A stretch of 64,000 bases of DNA from an uncultured Alphaproteobacteria bacterium (GTDB lineage: Bacteria; Pseudomonadota; Alphaproteobacteria; Rhizobiales; Rhizobiaceae). The notes below the pieces were generated by a model. The model did not search any database. It had not been told where the DNA came from and worked only from the letters and a program-made list of their open reading frames with translations. Position numbers and translations under genes: made by a program. Of this stretch, positions 1 to 63,837 are shown in pieces. The stretch's first letter is position 1. Each line of letters begins with the position of its first letter. The stretch spans positions 338,181-402,180 of the forward strand of contig CAWGHM010000009.1 of assembly GCA_963822365.1 (NCBI GenBank). The letters run 5' to 3'.

Positions 1-677
1 GCCGATCATAAAGGTCGAGCGGACGCCCCTGTTGCTCGATAATGCCATCGCGCATGACGACGACATGGTCGGCCATCGTCATCGCCTCGACCTGGTCGTG
101 CGTGACATAGACGGATGTTGCGCCCAGACGGTCGTGCAGCATGCGGATTTCCTTGCGCATATGCACACGCAGCGCCGCATCCAGGTTCGACAAGGGCTCG
201 TCAAACAGGAAGGCCTTGGGATTGCGGATGATCGCCCGGCTCATGGCGACGCGCTGGCGCTGGCCGCCGGATAGCTCGCGCGGATAGCGCCCGAGAAGTT
301 CCGATAGGCCAGTGGTTGCCGCAACCTCCGCTGCCGCCTTTTTCATCTCGGCCTTGCTCGCACCGCGAATGCGCAGGCTGTAGGTCAGGTTCTGCTCGAC
401 GGTCATGTGCGGATAGAGCGCATAGGTCTGGAAGACCATGGCGACATCGCGCTTGCGCGGCGGCACGTTGTTCATGAGATCGCCGGCAATGCGAAGATCG
501 CCGGTCGATGATGCTCTCAAGCCCTGCCAGCGACCGCAGAAGGGTCGACTTGCCGCAGCCGGACGGACCGACAAGCGCGACGAAGCTTCCCTTCTCGATC
601 GCCAGATCGATATTCTTGAGCGCGTGGAAGGCGCCGTAGTATTTGTTGACGCCGGACAGTTCGATCTGAAGGGTCAT
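1..677 (-). pseudogene. sugar ABC transporter ATP-binding protein (MalK/UgpC family); 3' part runs off window; apparent +1 frameshift near 505-512
   Basis: Minus-strand translation from ATG at 677 gives [47 protein letters not shown] (Walker A). The frame breaks after LAGLESI. A second minus frame continues DLRIAGD...[15 protein letters not shown]...[24 protein letters not shown] down to position 1. Start overlaps the upstream permease stop (ATGA at 674-677). Confidence 0.8.
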
Positions 678-1501
678 TTGAGGGCTCCCGAGGTGAGGCC
701 GGAAACGATACGGCGCTGCAGAAGGACAAAGATGGCGAGGATTGGCGTCACATACATCGTCGCGTAGGCCATGATGTTGTTCCATTCATTGGTGTTCGGC
801 CCCATGAAGGAATTGAGCCCGACGCTGGCCGGCTGCAGTTCCACCGCCTGGATGATCGACTTCGAATAGACGAACTCGCCGAAGGCCTGCATGAAGATCA
901 GGATGGCGCTGACCAGAATGCCGTTGCGCGCCAGAGGCAGAACGATGTGCCAGAAGGCCCCGATGCGCGAATTGCCGTCGACCAGCGCCGCCTCCTCGAG
1001 TTCCTGCGGCACGCTCATGAAGGTGGCACGAACGAGAACAACGAAGAACGGCATGCTTTTCGCGGCGATTGCGAGGATCACCGCAAAGCGCGGGCTGGCG
1101 AGCAGACCGATCTGCGAGAAGCCGACGAAGATCGGCGTGATCATCAGCGAGGCCGGAAGGACCTGCAGCATCAGGATCAGGAACAGGCCGATATCGACCC
1201 AGACATTGCGATACCGCGCCAGAACATAGGCGCAGCCGACGCCGAGCACGCAGATCAGCGAGACGGCACCAAGGGCAATGACCAGCGAGTTTCCGAGATA
1301 TCGGCCCATGTTGCGGCTCTGCCAGACATCGCCGTAAATATGCCACTGCGGATCGCTTGGCCAGAACTGCGGCGGTGTGGCAAACATCGCCGAGCCGGTC
1401 TTCAGCGCGGTGATGTACATCCAGTAGAGCGGAAACAGGTAGATGGCGGCCAGAAATATGGCGATGGCCAGCATCAGGCGGTTGCGCATCATGTCGCTCA
1501 T
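674..1501 (-). CDS. carbohydrate ABC transporter permease (MalG/AraQ-like)
   Basis: 275-aa intact ORF, multi-TM, typical CUT1 inner-membrane component. Stop overlaps the ATPase start. Confidence 0.9.
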
Positions 1502-2400
1502 CCCCGCACCTCATGACGTGTGGAACGCACGTAGACGACCGACGCAAACATCACGAAGACGATCATGATGACGGAAATCGTCGCGCCCTTGGCGAAATCA
1601 TACTGCCGGAAGGACAGGTCCCAGGCCCAGTATTGCGTGACATTGGACGAATTGTTCGGCCCACCGGAGGTGATGGCCGCGAACAGATCGAATTGCTGCA
1701 GCGTGAAGATCAACCCCAGCGAAATGATCGCGCCGATGCTCGAGCGCATCATCGGCAGGGTAATCGTCCAGAAACGCTGGAAGGCATTGGCGCCGTCAAG
1801 TTCGGCCGCCTCATAGAGGTCCTTGGGGATCGCAGACAGACCGACGGACAAAAGGATCATGTTGAAGGCCATGCCGAGCCAGATATTGGCAAGAATAACG
1901 GCCCAGAGCGAAAAGTCCGGGTCCGACCGCCAGAAGATGTTTCCGTCGATGATGCCGCTTTCGCGCAATAGGAAATTCAGGACGCCGAAATCGCCTGATA
2001 GAATCCAGTTCCAGATCGCACCGACGACGAGGCCGGGCATCACCCAGGACACGAGAAAGAGGCCGCGAAGCCAGGAAGCACCCGGAAAATTCGTCCAGAA
2101 GAACAGCGCCAGTCCGAAGCCGAGCAGGAATTGTCCGGCGATCGAGGCGACGACGAAGATGCCGGTATTGTAGAGGATCGGCAGTGTTTCCGGCTGGGCA
2201 AACAGGTCCCGATAGTTCTTCAGGCCGACGAAGGGCCGCCAGAAAGTCCCCAGGCTGAACATGTCAACTTCCTGAAAGCTCATCAGGACATTGTAGAGGA
2301 GCGGCAGGCCGGACATCAGAAAGAGATAGCCGAGAGGAAAGGCAACGAGCAGGATGTCGAAGCCTTTGCCATCGGTGATGCTGGAGAGGAGCCTCTTCAT
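1498..2400 (-). CDS. carbohydrate ABC transporter permease (MalF/AraP-like)
   Basis: ORF 1498..2598, but the permease-like sequence begins at MKRLLSSITDGKGFDILLVAFPLGYLF (ATG at 2400). The upstream 66 aa are low-complexity read-through. ATGA overlap with the next permease. Confidence 0.8.
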   Translation of the reverse strand: MKRLLSSITDGKGFDILLVAFPLGYLFLMSGLPLLYNVLMSFQEVDMFSLGTFWRPFVGLKNYRDLFAQPETLPILYNTGIFVVASIAGQFLLGFGLALFFWTNFPGASWLRGLFLVSWVMPGLVVGAIWNWILSGDFGVLNFLLRESGIIDGNIFWRSDPDFSLWAVILANIWLGMAFNMILLSVGLSAIPKDLYEAAELDGANAFQRFWTITLPMMRSSIGAIISLGLIFTLQQFDLFAAITSGGPNNSSNVTQYWAWDLSFRQYDFAKGATISVIMIVFVMFASVVYVRSTRHEVRG

Positions 2401-2501
2401 GGGGCCTCCGATGCTCCGAACGGGGCTGCCTCGTGCATTCGCGCGGGAGGCAACCCCTTCCGGGAGGAAAAGTTGGATGGCATGGGCCATCGGTGAAACC
2501 T

Positions 2502-2636
2502 CTTCTCCCCAGCGGGGAGAAGTGCCGAGCAAGCGAGGCGATGAGGGGCTCCGGCAACGCCGGAGCAGGAAATGTGGCCCCTGCGGTATCCCTCTCATCC
2601 GGCCCTGCGGGCGACCTTCTCCCCGCCGGGGAGAAG
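2502..2636. repeat. REP/RIME-like intergenic element: two near-identical 21-bp perfect palindromes (CTTCTCCCC-NNN-GGGGAGAAG at 2502-2522 and 2616-2636) flanking a third palindrome (GGCTCCGGC AAC GCCGGAGC, 2547-2566)
   Basis: Read directly in the 270-bp SBP-permease intergenic spacer. Resembles stem-loop elements found between malE-type SBP and permease genes. Confidence 0.6.
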
Positions 2637-2671
2637 ACGGAGACAGCCGTCCCCTTCACCGCAACCGAAGC

Positions 2672-3949
2672 TTAGCCGAGCACAGCCTTGATCTTCTCGG
2701 CAGCCTGGTCCAGCGCGTCCTTGGAGCTCATCTGGCCAGTCAGGGCACCCTGGATTGCGTCCTGGATCGCCTTGGAGATCTTTGGCCATTCCGGATGCGG
2801 TCCGCGCGGCTTGGCATATTTCAGCTGCTCGGTGAAGACCTTGAGGGCTTCATCCTTGAGCGGCTTTCCGGTTGCCGGAATGGCGATATCCGAGCGGGCC
2901 GGCAATTGTCCGAAGTCCGCGAACATCCTGCCATCCTGCGAGGCGAAATATTCGAGCACCTTGAACGCTTCCGCCGGATGCTGCGTATTGGAGAAGATCG
3001 CCCAGTTGAAATCGCCCATGGCCGATGAACGCTCGGCGCCGGCTTCAGGAACCGGCAGCAATGCGACACCCCAGTCGAACTTTGCCTCCGTCAGCATCCG
3101 GTCCAGTTCCCACGGACCGGAAATCGCCATGGCGGCATTGCCGGAATTGAAGGTGCCGGTCGAATCCCACTGGCCGCGGGTCAGGCTGTCCTGGGAGGCC
3201 AGTTTCTCCTCGATGATCGTCTTCCAGACGTCCAGCGCCTTGATCGACCCCTCCGAATTGATGTTTTCATAGCCGCCGCCCGCCATCTGGGCCCAGGGAA
3301 GGAACTGGAACGTGCCTTCTTCACTGGCTTTGGCGGAGAAAGCGAGACCATAGACGTTTGCGGCAGGGTCCGTCAGCTTGCGCGCCGCGTCGACCAGTTC
3401 GTCCCAGGTCTGCGGCGGCTTGTTCGGATCAAGCCCCTTCGCCTTGAACATGTCCTTGTTGTAGTAGAGGGCGATCGTGTTCGTTGCCTTCGGCACGCCG
3501 AAACTCTTGCCGTCCCACATGGTCGATGCCAGCGGCCCCGGGAAATAGTTGGCGGTCTTGATATCGCTGGACTTGGCGATCATGTCCGTCAGGTCGAGAA
3601 ACGCACCACGCGACGCGAACAATGCATGCTCGGGATTGTCGACGGCGATGATGTCAGGCGCCTGTCCGGTCGAATAGGCGCGCATCGCTTCGCTGACAAC
3701 ATCGTCAAACTGGATCTGGCGATACTCGACCTTGATGCCGGTGTTGAGCTTGTTGAAATCCGCCACCAGATTTGGCGCCGGCTGGATATCGCGGTCGAGC
3801 GACCAGACGCTGATCGTCACATCCTCTGCCTTGGCCGAAACGGCAAAGACTGACACGCTTGCAAGGGCGAATGCCCCCATGATTACGAGATTTCCGGATA
3901 CCCATTTTTTCCTCCTGTTGGTTATCCCTGAAATGCCGGCATCCTCCAT
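2672..3949 (-). CDS. carbohydrate ABC transporter substrate-binding protein (family 1 extracellular solute-binding protein)
   Basis: 425-aa ORF with a signal-peptide-like N-terminus ([33 protein letters not shown]) and SBP-like body. Start uncertain: a perfect SD AGGAGGA + 5 nt + ATG sits out of frame at 3905. Confidence 0.8.
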
Positions 3950-3968
3950 GCCGGCACGGCATGCACGC

Positions 3969-4874
3969 TCAGGCCGGATCGACGACGAAATCGCCGCCCC
4001 GGCATGTCTTCAGATAATTCAGCCCGTGAACCTGGCCGGTCATTTCCAGCGCATCGCGATAGACCGGATCGTGCCAGCCCTCGATATCGATCGATCCGGA
4101 CCAGCCGGCCAGCCGCAATTCGGAAATCACATCCGTCCAGTTGGTATCGCCGAAGCCGGGCGTGCGCATGAAGACGAATTTTTCCTTGCCGAAAATGCCG
4201 TGCTCGCGGATCACGTCCCAGCGGATCGTGGCGTCCTTGCCATGCACATGGAAAATCTTCGGTGCCCATTTGCGGATCTGCGGCAGCGGATCGATGAGAT
4301 AGACCATCTGATGGCAGGGCTCCCATTCGAGCCCGATATTGTCATCCGGCGTCTCGTTGAACATCAGCTCCCAGGCATCCGGGTTGTGCGCGATGTTCCA
4401 GTCGCCGCTGGCCCAGTTGCCATCCATCGCGCAGTTCTCGAAGGCGATCTTGACGCCCTTATCGGCAGCGCGCTTGGCAAGATCGCTCCAGATCTCCTTG
4501 TAACGCGGCAGGCTATCGGTAAGCGGCTTATTACGAATGCGGCCGGTGAAGCCGGCAACACAGGTCGCGCCGAAATGATGTGCATTGTCGATGCAGTCTT
4601 TCCAGCCCTGCAGCGTGTCGAGATCGATATCGGTCGTTTCCAGCGGATTGCCGAACATGCCGAGCGTCGAGATGGTGATATCCCGGTCGCCGATCGCCTC
4701 GATGCAGCGTTTGCCGAGTTCGGCCAGATCCTGACCGTTGGTCGTCTGCCAGAAGAAGGGCTCGAAACTTTCGAACCCCATATCGGCGATCTGCCCGATG
4801 CGGGTAGCGGCCTGGCCCGCAGATGCGCTGACCATGGTGCCGATGCGGATGGATTTTGCCGGATTGCTCATCAA
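3969..4874 (-). CDS. sugar phosphate isomerase/epimerase (xylose isomerase-like TIM barrel)
   Basis: 301-aa intact ORF. AP-endonuclease/xylose-isomerase-like fold motifs (KIAFEN, HVHGKD). Confidence 0.8.
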
Positions 4875-61741: not shown

Positions 61742-61775
61742 CAAAACGGTCCCGCTTCTTTCAACTTGAGCCATT

Positions 61776-63837
<2,062 letters not shown>

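Follow-up and report, generated by a model that had tools for sequence, protein, structure and literature searches.

The spacer and its genes

Within the window (the whole stretch of 64,000 nucleotides that was analysed), the gene for the substrate-binding protein (SBP) of a sugar ABC transporter is followed by the first permease gene of its operon, and the spacer between them carries a conspicuous set of palindromes (table 1). Both genes had been named in an initial annotation of this DNA and are confirmed by Pfam; the location given there for the spacer is right, while its length is 271 bp (2401-2671) and not 270 bp. The orientation assumed for the transcript was wrong: both genes lie on the minus strand, and the transcript is thus the reverse complement of the sequence that had been described. 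The coordinates of the SBP gene are those of the longest open reading frame, and as its orthologues are 410 aa long, the true start probably lies downstream of the start of that frame. The mechanically called permease frame extends to 2598, across the repeat, which is an over-extension. The nearest plasmid operons are ~80% identical to the operon of the window. A short metagenome contig in ENA (L124) with the same permease has a spacer identical in length to that of the window. In Rfam searches at the gathering threshold, a TPP riboswitch outside the spacer is the only family that passes in the window, and at permissive thresholds every match in the spacer scores below 18 bits against a required 38-137.

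Table 1. Features of the spacer and of the two genes that flank it, in window coordinates (energies are predicted for RNA)
Feature	Position	Strand	Remarks
First ABC permease gene	1498-2400	minus	Pfam BPD_transp_1, 5e-19
Permease Shine-Dalgarno sequence, GGAGG	2405-2409	minus	4 nt ahead of the AUG at 2398-2400
Ancestral hairpin in the permease leader	2416-2463	minus	Covarying
UUUCCUCCC motif	2462-2470	minus	Anti-Shine-Dalgarno-like; invariant in 19 aligned orthologues
Ancestral hairpin, GAUGGC-CCAU-GCCAUC (transcript), then AACUUUUCC	2476-2491	minus	Shared by occupied and empty orthologues; -8.6 kcal/mol
Whole repeat element	2499-2640	none	Type-A and type-B units as an inverted doublet, variable centre, terminal inverted repeats
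HP1 of unit A, CTTCTCCCC-AGC-GGGGAGAAG	2502-2522	none	9-bp polypyrimidine/polypurine hairpin; -15.7 kcal/mol
Linker of unit A, TGCCGAGC..GCGAGGC	2523-2539	none	Sequence conserved among type-A units; without a clean hairpin
Box of unit A, GATGAGGGG	2540-2548	plus	Mirrors the purine arm GGGGAGAAG
Central palindrome, GCTCCGGC-AAC-GCCGGAGC	2548-2566	none	Copy-specific; within the variable centre 2549-2589
Box of unit B, CCCTCTCATC	2590-2599	plus	Degenerate, with 1 nt inserted into the consensus CCCCTCATC; intact in L125
HP2 of unit B, GCCC-TGC-GGGC	2602-2612	none	Small second hairpin
HP1 of unit B, CTTCTCCCC-GCC-GGGGAGAAG	2616-2636	none	Preceded by AC, as in S. meliloti REP ACCTTCTCCCC; -17.3 kcal/mol
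35 nt from the SBP stop codon to the element	2637-2671	minus	Without a counterpart in empty orthologous spacers
SBP gene (sugar ABC transporter substrate-binding protein)	2672-3949	minus	Pfam SBP_bac_1, 6e-43; longest ORF

Architecture of the repeat element

Each unit of the doublet is ~47 nt long and consists of a hairpin (HP1), a linker and a G-rich mirror box, and units A and B are inverted copies of each other with ~81% identity. The two 21-bp perfect palindromes on which the initial annotation centred are the HP1 sequences, and both are exact; when the window was shuffled 100 times with its dinucleotides preserved, no shuffle yielded any match to the palindrome pattern at up to two mismatches, and a scan of the full 64 kb reveals no copies besides this doublet. 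RNA folding returns the element as a single long hairpin (-93.7 kcal/mol, z -7). In unit A, when the purine arm is read against the reversed box, all nine positions could form G.G-C, A.A-T or T.A-T triplets.

A third palindrome had been placed between these two, and it is real, apart from its start, which was set at 2547 and so took in one extra G. It is imperfect in a 99%-identical relative (L125) and absent in the occupied orthologues L126 and L136, and the centres of doublets elsewhere vary in both sequence and length; the central palindrome is not a feature of the family. HP2, in comparison, covaries: across 35 distinct units 92% of the cells are paired as against 82% after shuffling, 13 cells carry double changes, and none of 500 shuffles reaches the covariation score. 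In other spacing classes the stems at this position are wholly different, at 4-7 bp.

The pairing of unit types recurs, as the window and eight other loci combine a unit that has the linker of unit A with one whose linker reads CGGCCC-NNN-GGGCC. The doublets have terminal inverted repeats of the MITE type: nine independent A+B doublets end in CCCT followed by CTTCTCCCC on one side and in GGGGAGAAG followed by AGGG on the other, and this extension past HP1 changes complementarily between lineages (CCCT/AGGG versus GTTT/AAAC). The 35 nt between the element and the SBP stop codon probably belong to the insertion as well.

Dispersal and insertion state

The core of the element (query 99-237) occurs at 278 places on 180 Rhizobiaceae plasmids, mostly from Rhizobium, Shinella, Pararhizobium and Neorhizobium, with Sinorhizobium contributing 1 of the 180 matching plasmid records, and further copies are present in other Alphaproteobacteria. 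A palindrome scan of one genome per species detects at least 120 stretches, and the family spreads far beyond Rhizobiaceae. Among the matches listed, the box adjoins 135 of ~150 palindromes in other genomes, and 135 units have the box-HP2-HP1 layout. The plasmid matches include non-orthologous spacers, such as one between nitrate reductase and nirD (L002), and the sites fall between 61 co-directional, 27 convergent and 11 divergent gene pairs, a distribution typical of REP sequences. The proposal that the palindromes belong to a dispersed repeat family, and are not specific to this gene pair, is borne out by these counts together with the orthologous operons, most of which are without the element.

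Of 78 loci, most have an orthologous spacer of 99-120 nt; lengths of 243-284 nt are confined to one clade, where their occurrence is patchy and the sister lineages L126 and L127 differ in the presence of the element. As most orthologous operons have only the ancestral spacer, the element represents an insertion rather than a structure specific to the gene. Across orthologues this spacer differs to an unusual degree, since several different inserts occur, as do a solo-hairpin state and losses; carriers of the solo hairpin have the 5' junction in common with doublet carriers and differ from them downstream. In comparisons of filled and empty orthologues, L126 and L127 included, the junctions are too diverged for a target-site duplication or a clean empty-filled junction to be defined, and recombination or gene conversion could therefore explain the pattern. 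In four orthologous copies the HP1 stems are identical despite diverged flanks, and the stem of HP1 in unit A is invariant while its loop varies. Such identity amid diverged flanks points to constraint or homogenisation, which would be unexpected for a purely neutral insertion.

Orthologues without the element retain an ancestral spacer of ~100 nt with its own covarying hairpin and a leader that sequesters the Shine-Dalgarno sequence. The stem of the ancestral hairpin varies in sequence between orthologues and its complementarity is retained, as judged by eye. For the leader, RNAalifold on 19 orthologues returns 10 pairs, 6 of which show compensatory double changes, and in the predicted minimum-energy fold the UUUCCUCCC motif pairs with the Shine-Dalgarno sequence of the permease gene. 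The operon's conserved regulatory RNA, as these predictions have it, is this older segment beside the permease gene, and the palindromes are a passenger repeat.

Relationship to described repeats

By its sequence features, the element is one copy of a widespread and already-described class of bacterial repeats. The canonical consensus of the Sinorhizobium meliloti REP is ACCTTCTCCCCGCAAGCGGGGCGAAGG, with CCCTCATCCGCCTGCCGG upstream in some copies (Tobes and Ramos 2005; Tobes and Pareja 2006, PMC1525189), and the arms of its palindrome are ACCTTCTCCCC and GGGG(A/C)GAAGG (PMC1525189). Both units match these arms, unit B as GACCTTCTCCCC-GCC-GGGGAGAAGA and unit A, on its own strand, as GCACTTCTCCCC-GCT-GGGGAGAAGA. 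The two repeats agree in identical hairpin arms (AC-CTTCTCCCC ... GGGGAGAAG-G), in the CCCTCATCC box and GCCTGCCGG-type linker found upstream in published copies (PMC1525189), and in being extragenic, the element of the window being dispersed over many genomes with one doublet in 64 kb. They differ in the loop, which is 3 nt in the window and 4-6 nt in S. meliloti, and in the organisation of the element in the window as an A+B doublet whose linkers are typical of Rhizobium, Pararhizobium and Neorhizobium. The S. meliloti REP is a known insertion target of ISRm22 and ISRm19 (PMC1525189).

A second likeness is to the BoxC/PIT/TM_ECO repeats of Escherichia coli (Hoyne 2000; Holder 2015, PMC4666352), which likewise combine a pyrimidine arm, a purine arm and a mirror G-rich block. 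TM_ECO is always intergenic and without strand bias, and its loci vary between related strains (PMC4666352). Inverted pairs in E. coli always consist of a type A and a type B (PMC4666352), as they do here, and the class with a 5-nt linker, found in genomes outside Alphaproteobacteria, shares in essence the layout of E. coli BoxC/TM. The Rhizobiaceae element, however, has CTTCTCCCC/GATGAGGGG in place of CCCTCTCCC/GGTGAGGG, and its second linker is 13-20 nt long, usually with a covarying hairpin of its own. In the window the first loop, at 3 nt, stays within the 1-6 nt that define ITxF motifs, and the second linker exceeds them, with 17 nt for unit A and 16 nt for unit B, which suggests a TM variant with a structured linker. 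In the E. coli study, triplex formation went undetected in double-stranded DNA and in vivo, and neither promoter nor terminator activity was seen for the related E. coli motifs (PMC4666352).

The element had been called REP/RIME-like, and the first half of that label stands on the S. meliloti REP consensus and the BoxC/PIT/TM architecture, whereas the second does not. We reached the RIME1 type locus with a ChvI probe (L210 = CP001389.1), where the chvI-exoS spacer of strain NGR234, 513 bp long, holds RIME1 in duplicate (~105-108 bp each, L210:3737-3841 and 3933-4037; 50-54% G+C). RIME1, with its two large palindromes, reportedly occurs in the chvI-exoS (chvG) spacer of S. meliloti as well, and the 109-bp RIME2 is likewise assigned to that spacer. 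Neither copy has the CTTCTCCCC or CCCTCATC motif, and blastn against the element of the window returns only chance words of 7-8 nt (E 0.2-0.8). RIME1 copies are also detected in L208, L118, L150 and L071, whereas at chvI-exoS itself the S. medicae-type loci L205-L207 (with a short spacer) and the S. fredii locus L208 have no insert. A text search for the sequence gave no match.

Association with DUF559 genes

In one locus (L057), the open reading frame between two inverted units of exactly the window's family encodes a DUF559 protein (Pfam E = 9e-34), and a Shinella DUF559 gene has a unit of this family ~70 nt upstream. When DUF559 loci were scored for bracketing inverted repeats, 9 of 16 exceeded the maximum of 400 controls; as this scoring missed loci whose units are direct, one-sided or diverged, a second detector was applied. 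All 13 independently sampled DUF559 loci, across phyla, have such hairpins within 330 nt, where 6% would be expected from a background of Rhizobiaceae loci, that is, of other genomes. Other small open reading frames between units belong to no family (L021) or are repeat-derived (L108), and DUF559 is the only identified gene that we find between units of the window's family. This association suggests a nuclease as the partner of the repeats, in the way that RAYT is the partner of REPINs.

Interpretation and alternative explanations

Taken together, we consider it very probable that 2499-2640 is a copy of a dispersed, non-coding palindromic repeat, made of S. meliloti-type REP units in the BoxC/PIT/TM layout and inserted after the stop codon of the SBP gene, ahead of an older hairpin that is specific to the gene. 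Such an element would behave as a MITE- or REPIN-like non-autonomous element, and its likely partner would be a DUF559 endonuclease gene of the kind that sits between two units elsewhere. For the window this is a corrective result, as its conspicuous palindromes are a passenger repeat, and it matters both for annotation, since ORF callers extend frames across repeats of this kind, and for the practice of reading regulation from hairpins.

An effect on the operon would follow from co-transcription, by which the element would fold into very stable RNA hairpins 35 nt past the SBP stop codon. With such hairpins in place, 3'-to-5' degradation of the SBP segment might proceed more slowly, as with the malE-malF REPs of E. 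coli, whose REP/BIME hairpins reportedly shield the upstream mRNA from 3' exonucleases (Newbury 1987). The malE-malF repeat occupies the corresponding operon position, with the gene for the binding protein of a sugar ABC transporter on one side and the first permease gene on the other; it belongs to a different repeat family, however, and what is conserved at our locus is an older hairpin and leader. Any protection would be a side effect on top of the ancestral hairpin and the Shine-Dalgarno-sequestering leader, which on their predicted structures may already differentiate SBP from permease expression. A stabilising effect on SBP mRNA is plausible, and it would be a dispensable one. The idea that the element sets the ratio of SBP to permease is weakened by the orthologues that lack it and keep the older hairpin and leader, by the lack of a terminator-like site, and by the absence of promoter and terminator activity reported for the related E. 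coli motifs (PMC4666352).

The reading closest to that of the initial annotation is that of a gene-specific intercistronic stabiliser, with stem-loops selected at this locus to protect SBP mRNA and yield an excess of SBP over the membrane components. The position of the element, 35 nt from the SBP stop and on the permease side of it, is reportedly that of the classic malE-malF REP; the predicted RNA hairpins are very stable, and the HP1 stems are perfectly retained in four diverged orthologous copies. We nevertheless regard this reading as improbable, since most orthologous operons, a sister lineage among them, are without the element, the same units are found at unrelated loci by the hundred, oriented either way with respect to transcription, and a conserved hairpin and a covarying, Shine-Dalgarno-sequestering leader are already in place in the spacer; for the related motifs of E. 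coli, moreover, neither terminator nor promoter activity was seen (PMC4666352). A+B doublets lie in either orientation to transcription (3 versus 2), so that a strand-specific RNA role is likewise unsupported. That the G+C-rich hairpins between the genes form an intrinsic terminator or attenuator that reduces read-through into the permease genes is very doubtful: a terminator scan of 2300-2800 finds no hairpin with a U-tract on either strand, HP1 is followed only by AGGUUUCACC, terminator activity was not seen for PIT elements (PMC4666352), and the hairpin of the ancestral spacer, with AACUUUUCC after it, is a better candidate. The combined promoter and terminator scan of the same interval found nothing.

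The remaining alternatives concern what kind of repeat this is. RIMEs are reportedly Rhizobium-specific intergenic mosaic elements with two palindromes, a description that an intergenic element of ~100-140 bp with two palindromes in a Rhizobiaceae-like genome would fit. RIME1 (Osteras, Stanley and Finan 1995) is similarly small, at ~100 bp, and dispersed in Rhizobiaceae; it is, however, unrelated in sequence at its NGR234 type locus, richer in AT, built on other palindromes, without a mirror box and not found in the window, and the family of the window extends far beyond Rhizobiaceae. Identity with RIME1 is rejected on these grounds, and membership of the RIMEs at large (RIME1 or RIME2) is barely credible. 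The two inverted REP-like units, with a spacer that lets them form one long hairpin, do give the layout of a REPIN (Bertels and Rainey 2011; Nunvar 2010; PMC3116915, PMC3337134), and one could suppose a classical REPIN mobilised by RAYT, an IS200/IS605-like Y1 transposase. Yet GTAG or CGTC tags mark most RAYT-associated REPs (PMC3733652), and the unit alignments have neither at the foot of the hairpin, where the flanks read CAC-CTTCTCCCC and GGGGAGAAG-(A/G)GG; the gene between inverted units encodes a DUF559 protein with a Vsr-like PD-(D/E)XK fold instead of an HUH Y1 transposase, and the spacer is highly variable, all of which makes a RAYT origin quite improbable. A non-mobile hotspot of triplex- or cruciform-prone DNA, which would arise and decay locally and spread by recombination or gene conversion with no dedicated enzyme, deserves more weight and is still unlikely in our view. 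The perfect mirror symmetry of purine arm and box would fit it (compare PMC4666352), as would the variable orthologous spacers, which match the instability reported for E. coli TM loci (PMC4666352), and the lack of a target duplication at junctions too diverged to define one. On the other hand, triplexes have escaped detection in double-stranded DNA and in vivo (PMC4666352), and the long unit sequence common to distant genomes, the consistent terminal inverted repeats and the conserved geometry of the DUF559 association would be difficult to account for if no sequence-specific partner existed.

As to the nature of that partner, we tentatively propose, at somewhat less than an even chance, that hairpin-plus-mirror-box repeats are non-autonomous partners of DUF559 (YcjD-like, Vsr-fold) endonuclease genes, and that doublets without an open reading frame, like 2499-2640, are miniature derivatives. 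To our knowledge, BoxC/PIT/triplex motifs and S. meliloti-type REPs have no known origin, function or mobilising enzyme, their origin having stayed unexplained since the 1990s. Holder et al. saw no link of TM to mobile-element genes (PMC4666352). The proposal would cover the Rhizobiaceae family, the S. meliloti REP, E. coli BoxC/PIT/TM, the Deinococcus REP-type repeats and cyanobacterial relatives, and a full element would read [hairpin-linker-box] - DUF559 ORF - [box-linker-hairpin]. There may be a parallel with REPIN-RAYT here, in that a usually single-copy gene is flanked by its cognate repeats, with DUF559 in the place of RAYT. If the proposal is true, this would be a second repeat-nuclease system alongside REPIN-RAYT, present in several phyla, and would supply a candidate enzyme for the repeats; as the geometry of the association is conserved from Deinococcus to Alphaproteobacteria and E. 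coli, the question of their origin becomes directly testable. Of 5426 complete E. coli genomes, 3378 (62%) carry ycjD, as a single copy and at one locus, so that DUF559 itself does not look mobile there. DUF559 is a small protein, and the structure of a relative, 3HRL, has been solved.

Anatomy of the element and its place in the operon

The element in the spacer between the solute-binding protein (SBP) and permease genes is an ordinary representative of a known bacterial repeat class, REP/BoxC-like and not RIME1. All three palindromes described in the initial annotation are present (table), and the twin-palindrome pattern had no match in 100 dinucleotide-preserving shuffles of the window, with up to two mismatches allowed. 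The twins are not isolated palindromes; they are the outer hairpins (HP1) of two units of about 47 nt, A and B, which are mutual inverted copies (about 81% identity) and in which a box mirrors the HP1 purine arm, and the third palindrome sits within the 41-nt centre of the element. The flanking genes had been correctly named as SBP and permease genes, but they lie on the minus strand, the operon transcript being the reverse complement, and the spacer measures 271 bp. As RNA or single-stranded DNA, the whole element is predicted to fold into a single long hairpin (RNA -93.7 kcal/mol, z about -7), with an alternative RNA fold of local hairpins at -15 to -17 kcal/mol apiece. No further copies were found within the 64-kb window, no Rfam family matched the element, and a scan around it found no sigma-70 promoter or hairpin-plus-U terminator.

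Mechanical ORFs that cross repeat units, as at window 1498-2598 (minus) and at 84-593 (minus) of the Brevundimonas locus L057, acquire spurious N- or C-terminal extensions (e.g. LLPSGEKVARGAGRMRG), and annotated proteins adjoining such repeats likely carry false terminal extensions. A TPP riboswitch (RF00059) at window 61770-61902 (plus), scoring 69.5 bits and above the gathering score, is unrelated to the element.

Coordinates of the features discussed (window positions, unless a fetched locus, L plus number, or a database record is named)
Feature	Position	Strand	Remarks
Second BPD_transp_1 permease	674-1501	minus	
First BPD_transp_1 permease after the SBP gene	1498-2400	minus	
SBP-permease spacer	2401-2671		271 bp
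Permease Shine-Dalgarno GGAGG	2405-2409	minus	
Leader hairpin	2416-2463	minus	compensatory changes support 6 of 10 pairs
UUUCCUCCC motif	2462-2470	minus	invariant in 19 aligned orthologues
Short ancestral hairpin, then AACUUUUCC	2476-2491	minus	just after SBP gene; in all orthologues
Unit A, HP1 (first palindrome, CTTCTCCCC-AGC-GGGGAGAAG)	2502-2522	plus-strand reading	17-nt linker follows
Unit A, box GATGAGGGG	2540-2548	plus-strand reading	
Third palindrome, GCTCCGGC-AAC-GCCGGAGC	2548-2566		
Unit B, box CCCTCTCATC	2590-2599	plus-strand reading	
Unit B, HP2	2602-2612	plus-strand reading	small second hairpin; AC follows
Unit B, HP1 (second palindrome, CTTCTCCCC-GCC-GGGGAGAAG)	2616-2636	plus-strand reading	
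Solute-binding protein gene	2672-3949	minus	
RIME1 copies, NGR234 type-locus pair	L210:3737-3841 + 3933-4037		78-79% identical
RIME1 copies elsewhere	L208:946-1052; L118:3443-3545; L150:5380-5474; L071:7227-7331		four fetched loci
Higher-order arrangements of units	L083:6227-6451; L007:1509-1625 + 3297-3415; L028:6018-6091; L048:5035-5100		
DUF559 loci with hairpin-plus-mirror-box units	L057:84-593; L056:5106-5393; L030:7499-7756; L213-L224; L212:1608-1961		
ycjD 3' duplication region	L212:1520-1663		E. coli K-12 record 1,351,319-1,351,462
BoxC/TM #9	record 1,351,204-1,351,239		E. coli K-12

Insertion state among orthologous operons

Our comparison covered 80 orthologous metagenome operon loci together with plasmid orthologues from Sinorhizobium and R. 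leguminosarum. The spacer is 99-120 nt long in most orthologues, and doublet-bearing spacers (243-284 nt) are confined to one clade, where their distribution is patchy. A B+A doublet as in the window is also found in loci L124, L125, L126 and L136. The doublet of L131, L137 and the R. leguminosarum locus L003 is another one, distinguished by its linkers and a centre of 70 nt, and L129, L134, L139 and L179 have a solo HP1. The spacer of L127, sister locus to the doublet-carrying L126, is empty. The position of the insert is constant, after the SBP stop codon and before the first ancestral hairpin, and the junctions of filled and empty orthologues are too diverged to reveal target duplication or clean excision. 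The window element is an insertion, in an operon spacer that already possesses a conserved regulatory RNA.

In the four B+A carriers the HP1 stems show no variation and the A and B linkers are largely conserved, unlike the centre, and the third palindrome is imperfect in L125 (99% identical) and absent from L126 and L136. That the HP1 stems do not vary among diverged orthologous copies shows that something maintains them; selection that acts on pairing could do so, as could homogenisation with copies elsewhere in the genome. In other lineages the same spacer holds unrelated inserts (L171/L173-L175, about 201 nt; L140/L141/L144, 192 nt; L202, 269 nt; L201, 225 nt; L148/L153/L155/L156, 143 nt), which marks the site as one of recurrent landing or variability. 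Several “empty” spacers (L145, L147, L130) start with TCTCCC(C)CGC or TATCCCCCGC in the first 10 nt directly after the SBP stop, and that of L127 starts with TCCCTCCTCC; these starts, which resemble the HP1 5' arm, could be what is left of a lost element or could mark a preferred target.

The ancestral leader and a possible local effect of the element

The segment at 2401-2498 (minus) is common to orthologues with and without the repeat. The CCUCC within the invariant UUUCCUCCC motif is paired with the permease Shine-Dalgarno when the segment takes its minimum-energy fold. This older segment is a better candidate than the repeat for setting permease expression relative to SBP. The leader, which has no match in Rfam, is possibly a translational control element of the sugar ABC operon that has yet to be described.

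The initial annotation had proposed that the element stabilises the SBP transcript. The element would be co-transcribed with the operon, its predicted stable fold lying 35 nt past the SBP stop. The malE-malF REPs of E. coli are the model for hairpins that impede 3' exonucleases, and by this analogy the folded element could hinder such enzymes and give a longer-lived SBP mRNA segment. Stabilisation of this kind is plausible, unproven and dispensable; its absence from most orthologues, the mixed polarity of the element elsewhere and the negative reporter results for PIT elements argue that any effect on the mRNA would be incidental.

A dispersed family and its relatives

The expectation of a dispersed family was borne out: the core (window 2499-2637) has 278 matches across 180 plasmids, at unrelated loci (for example the nitrate reductase-nirD gap of P. 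qamdonense), almost all in Rhizobium, Shinella, Pararhizobium and Neorhizobium. A palindrome scan with one genome per species returned at least 120 stretches; among the matches listed, Rhizobiaceae dominate, with Mesorhizobium, Bosea, Devosia, Brevundimonas, Sphingobium, Dyella and scattered other lineages, and the CCCCTCATC box stands beside 135 of about 150 palindromes, at preferred distances of 5, 13, 14, 16, 18 or 20 nt. The linker between box and HP1 is a second hairpin (HP2) that varies in sequence and retains its pairing. Across 35 distinct units with a 16-nt linker, 92% of cells are paired versus 82% in shuffled units, with 13 double-change cells and a covariation score that 0 of 500 shuffles reached; the remaining linker classes have wholly different stems of 4-7 bp. 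At columns 12/22 of alignment A4 (units from L007, L009, L016, L026 and others), each of the 11 “unpaired” HP2 cells reads A.C on the C-rich strand and G.T (G.U) on the G-rich strand, so that every pair is kept on the G-rich strand only, the strand reported as triplex-forming in vitro in E. coli.

Nine independent A+B doublets share the ends CCCT|CTTCTCCCC ... GGGGAGAAG|AGGG, and in Agrobacterium the extension is GTTT...AAAC, with complementarity retained. Doublet centres vary in length (about 20-70 nt) and in sequence. Most repeat sites lie between co-directional (61) or convergent (27) genes and few between divergent ones (11), and A+B doublets are found in either polarity with respect to transcription. 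An A-B-A triplet in Pararhizobium, tail-to-tail pairs with boxes outward, and two Agrobacterium doublets that lie 1.7 kb apart on either side of two genes were also found, a mosaic clustering that recalls the organisation of BIMEs.

The REP-like label holds, as the window unit is the S. meliloti REP unit with BoxC architecture. The canonical S. meliloti REP is ACCTTCTCCCCGCAAGCGGGGCGAAGG, with copies beside ISRm22 that carry CCCTCATCC-GCCTGCCGG upstream (Tobes and Pareja, PMC1525189); its loop is longer than that of the window unit. The E. coli BoxC, also called PIT or TM_ECO, is CCCTCTCCC-TGT-GGGAGAGGG-CCGG-GGTGAGGG (PMC4666352) and shares the architecture of the window units, but differs in that their second linker is long and structured, as it is in the D. 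radiodurans REP, GGGAGAGGG-CCTTGCGAAGCAAGG-GGTGAGGG, of the same table as the S. meliloti REP (PMC1525189). TM_ECO is always intergenic, without strand bias; its inverted pairs are always type A with type B, and its loci are deleted or mutated between strains more often than control spacers. It has no promoter or terminator activity, its G-rich strand adopts a triplex in vitro when isolated, with none detected in duplex DNA or in vivo, and no link to mobile-element genes was found (all PMC4666352).

The RIME-like label, on the other hand, fails. With a ChvI probe we reached the RIME1 type locus, the 513-bp chvI-exoS spacer of NGR234 (L210), which holds two copies of an element of about 105-108 bp, each made of two large AT-richer palindromes. 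We take this paired-palindrome element to be RIME1, whose description it fits. It has only words of 7-8 nt in common with the window element, and the window contains no copy of it, so this comparison rejects a RIME1 identity; RIME1 is a genuine dispersed family distinct from the window element. Its copies elsewhere lie at unrelated loci, one of them on an orthologous-operon contig.

Association with DUF559 genes

The main value of our analysis lies in the physical association of these repeat units with DUF559 (YcjD-like endonuclease) genes, which gives a testable origin for the repeats. In the Brevundimonas locus L057, two inverted units of the window's exact family, 444 nt apart, enclose a DUF559 ORF (Pfam E = 9e-34) whose ends are encoded by the flanking units. 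Two further DUF559 homologues, the only others within the 1.45 Mb of fetched sequence, are likewise bracketed by inverted hairpin-plus-box units, with a unit sequence particular to each, and a unit from the window's own family precedes a Shinella gene by about 70 nt. We extended the sample by tblastn (33 plasmid-collection records, 12 fetched) to Sinorhizobium, Shinella, Azospirillum, Methylobacterium, sphingomonads, Neisseria, Deinococcus and cyanobacteria. Flanking inverted repeats exceed the maximum of 400 random controls at 6 of the 12 sampled loci and 9 of 16 overall, including a 114-nt pair in S. meliloti; at the remaining sampled loci the units are one-sided, or two-sided as direct repeats. 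A generic detector found one or more polypyrimidine/polypurine hairpins within 330 nt at 13 of 13 DUF559 loci (random expectation 6%, P about 1e-16), at a density of 3.7 per kb versus a background of 0.095 per kb taken from Rhizobiaceae loci rather than the same genomes. The end of the upstream unit falls 67-84 nt ahead of the conserved domain, and 12-17 nt ahead of the annotated start codon, at eight loci drawn from three phyla or classes.

Across a range that takes in Deinococcus, cyanobacteria and Proteobacteria, all 16 DUF559 loci examined are flanked by hairpin-plus-mirror-box units, which often form terminal inverted repeats and keep a conserved distance to the start codon. DUF559 has a Vsr-like PD-(D/E)XK fold (PMC1189080), and its sole solved relative, 3HRL, is an uncharacterised “endonuclease-like protein.” We infer that DUF559 may have a role in copying or maintaining the repeats. 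The association is unreported in the literature we found on DUF559/YcjD or in later work on BoxC/triplex motifs; that search was incomplete, and an earlier description is possible.

In E. coli K-12 (L212), the DUF559 gene ycjD ends within a degenerate motif, and its 3' end is partly duplicated, the duplicated stretch continuing into TM #9, which lies 167 nt downstream. The gene occurs in 3378 of 5426 complete E. coli genomes (62%), at one locus and single-copy (1-2 copies). The duplicated fragment, the last ~40 nt of ycjD (ggagacggtgctggagaatattc..ctgaaccg), lies about 100 nt downstream of the gene, leads into BoxC/TM #9, and looks like a remnant of a second DUF559 element end.
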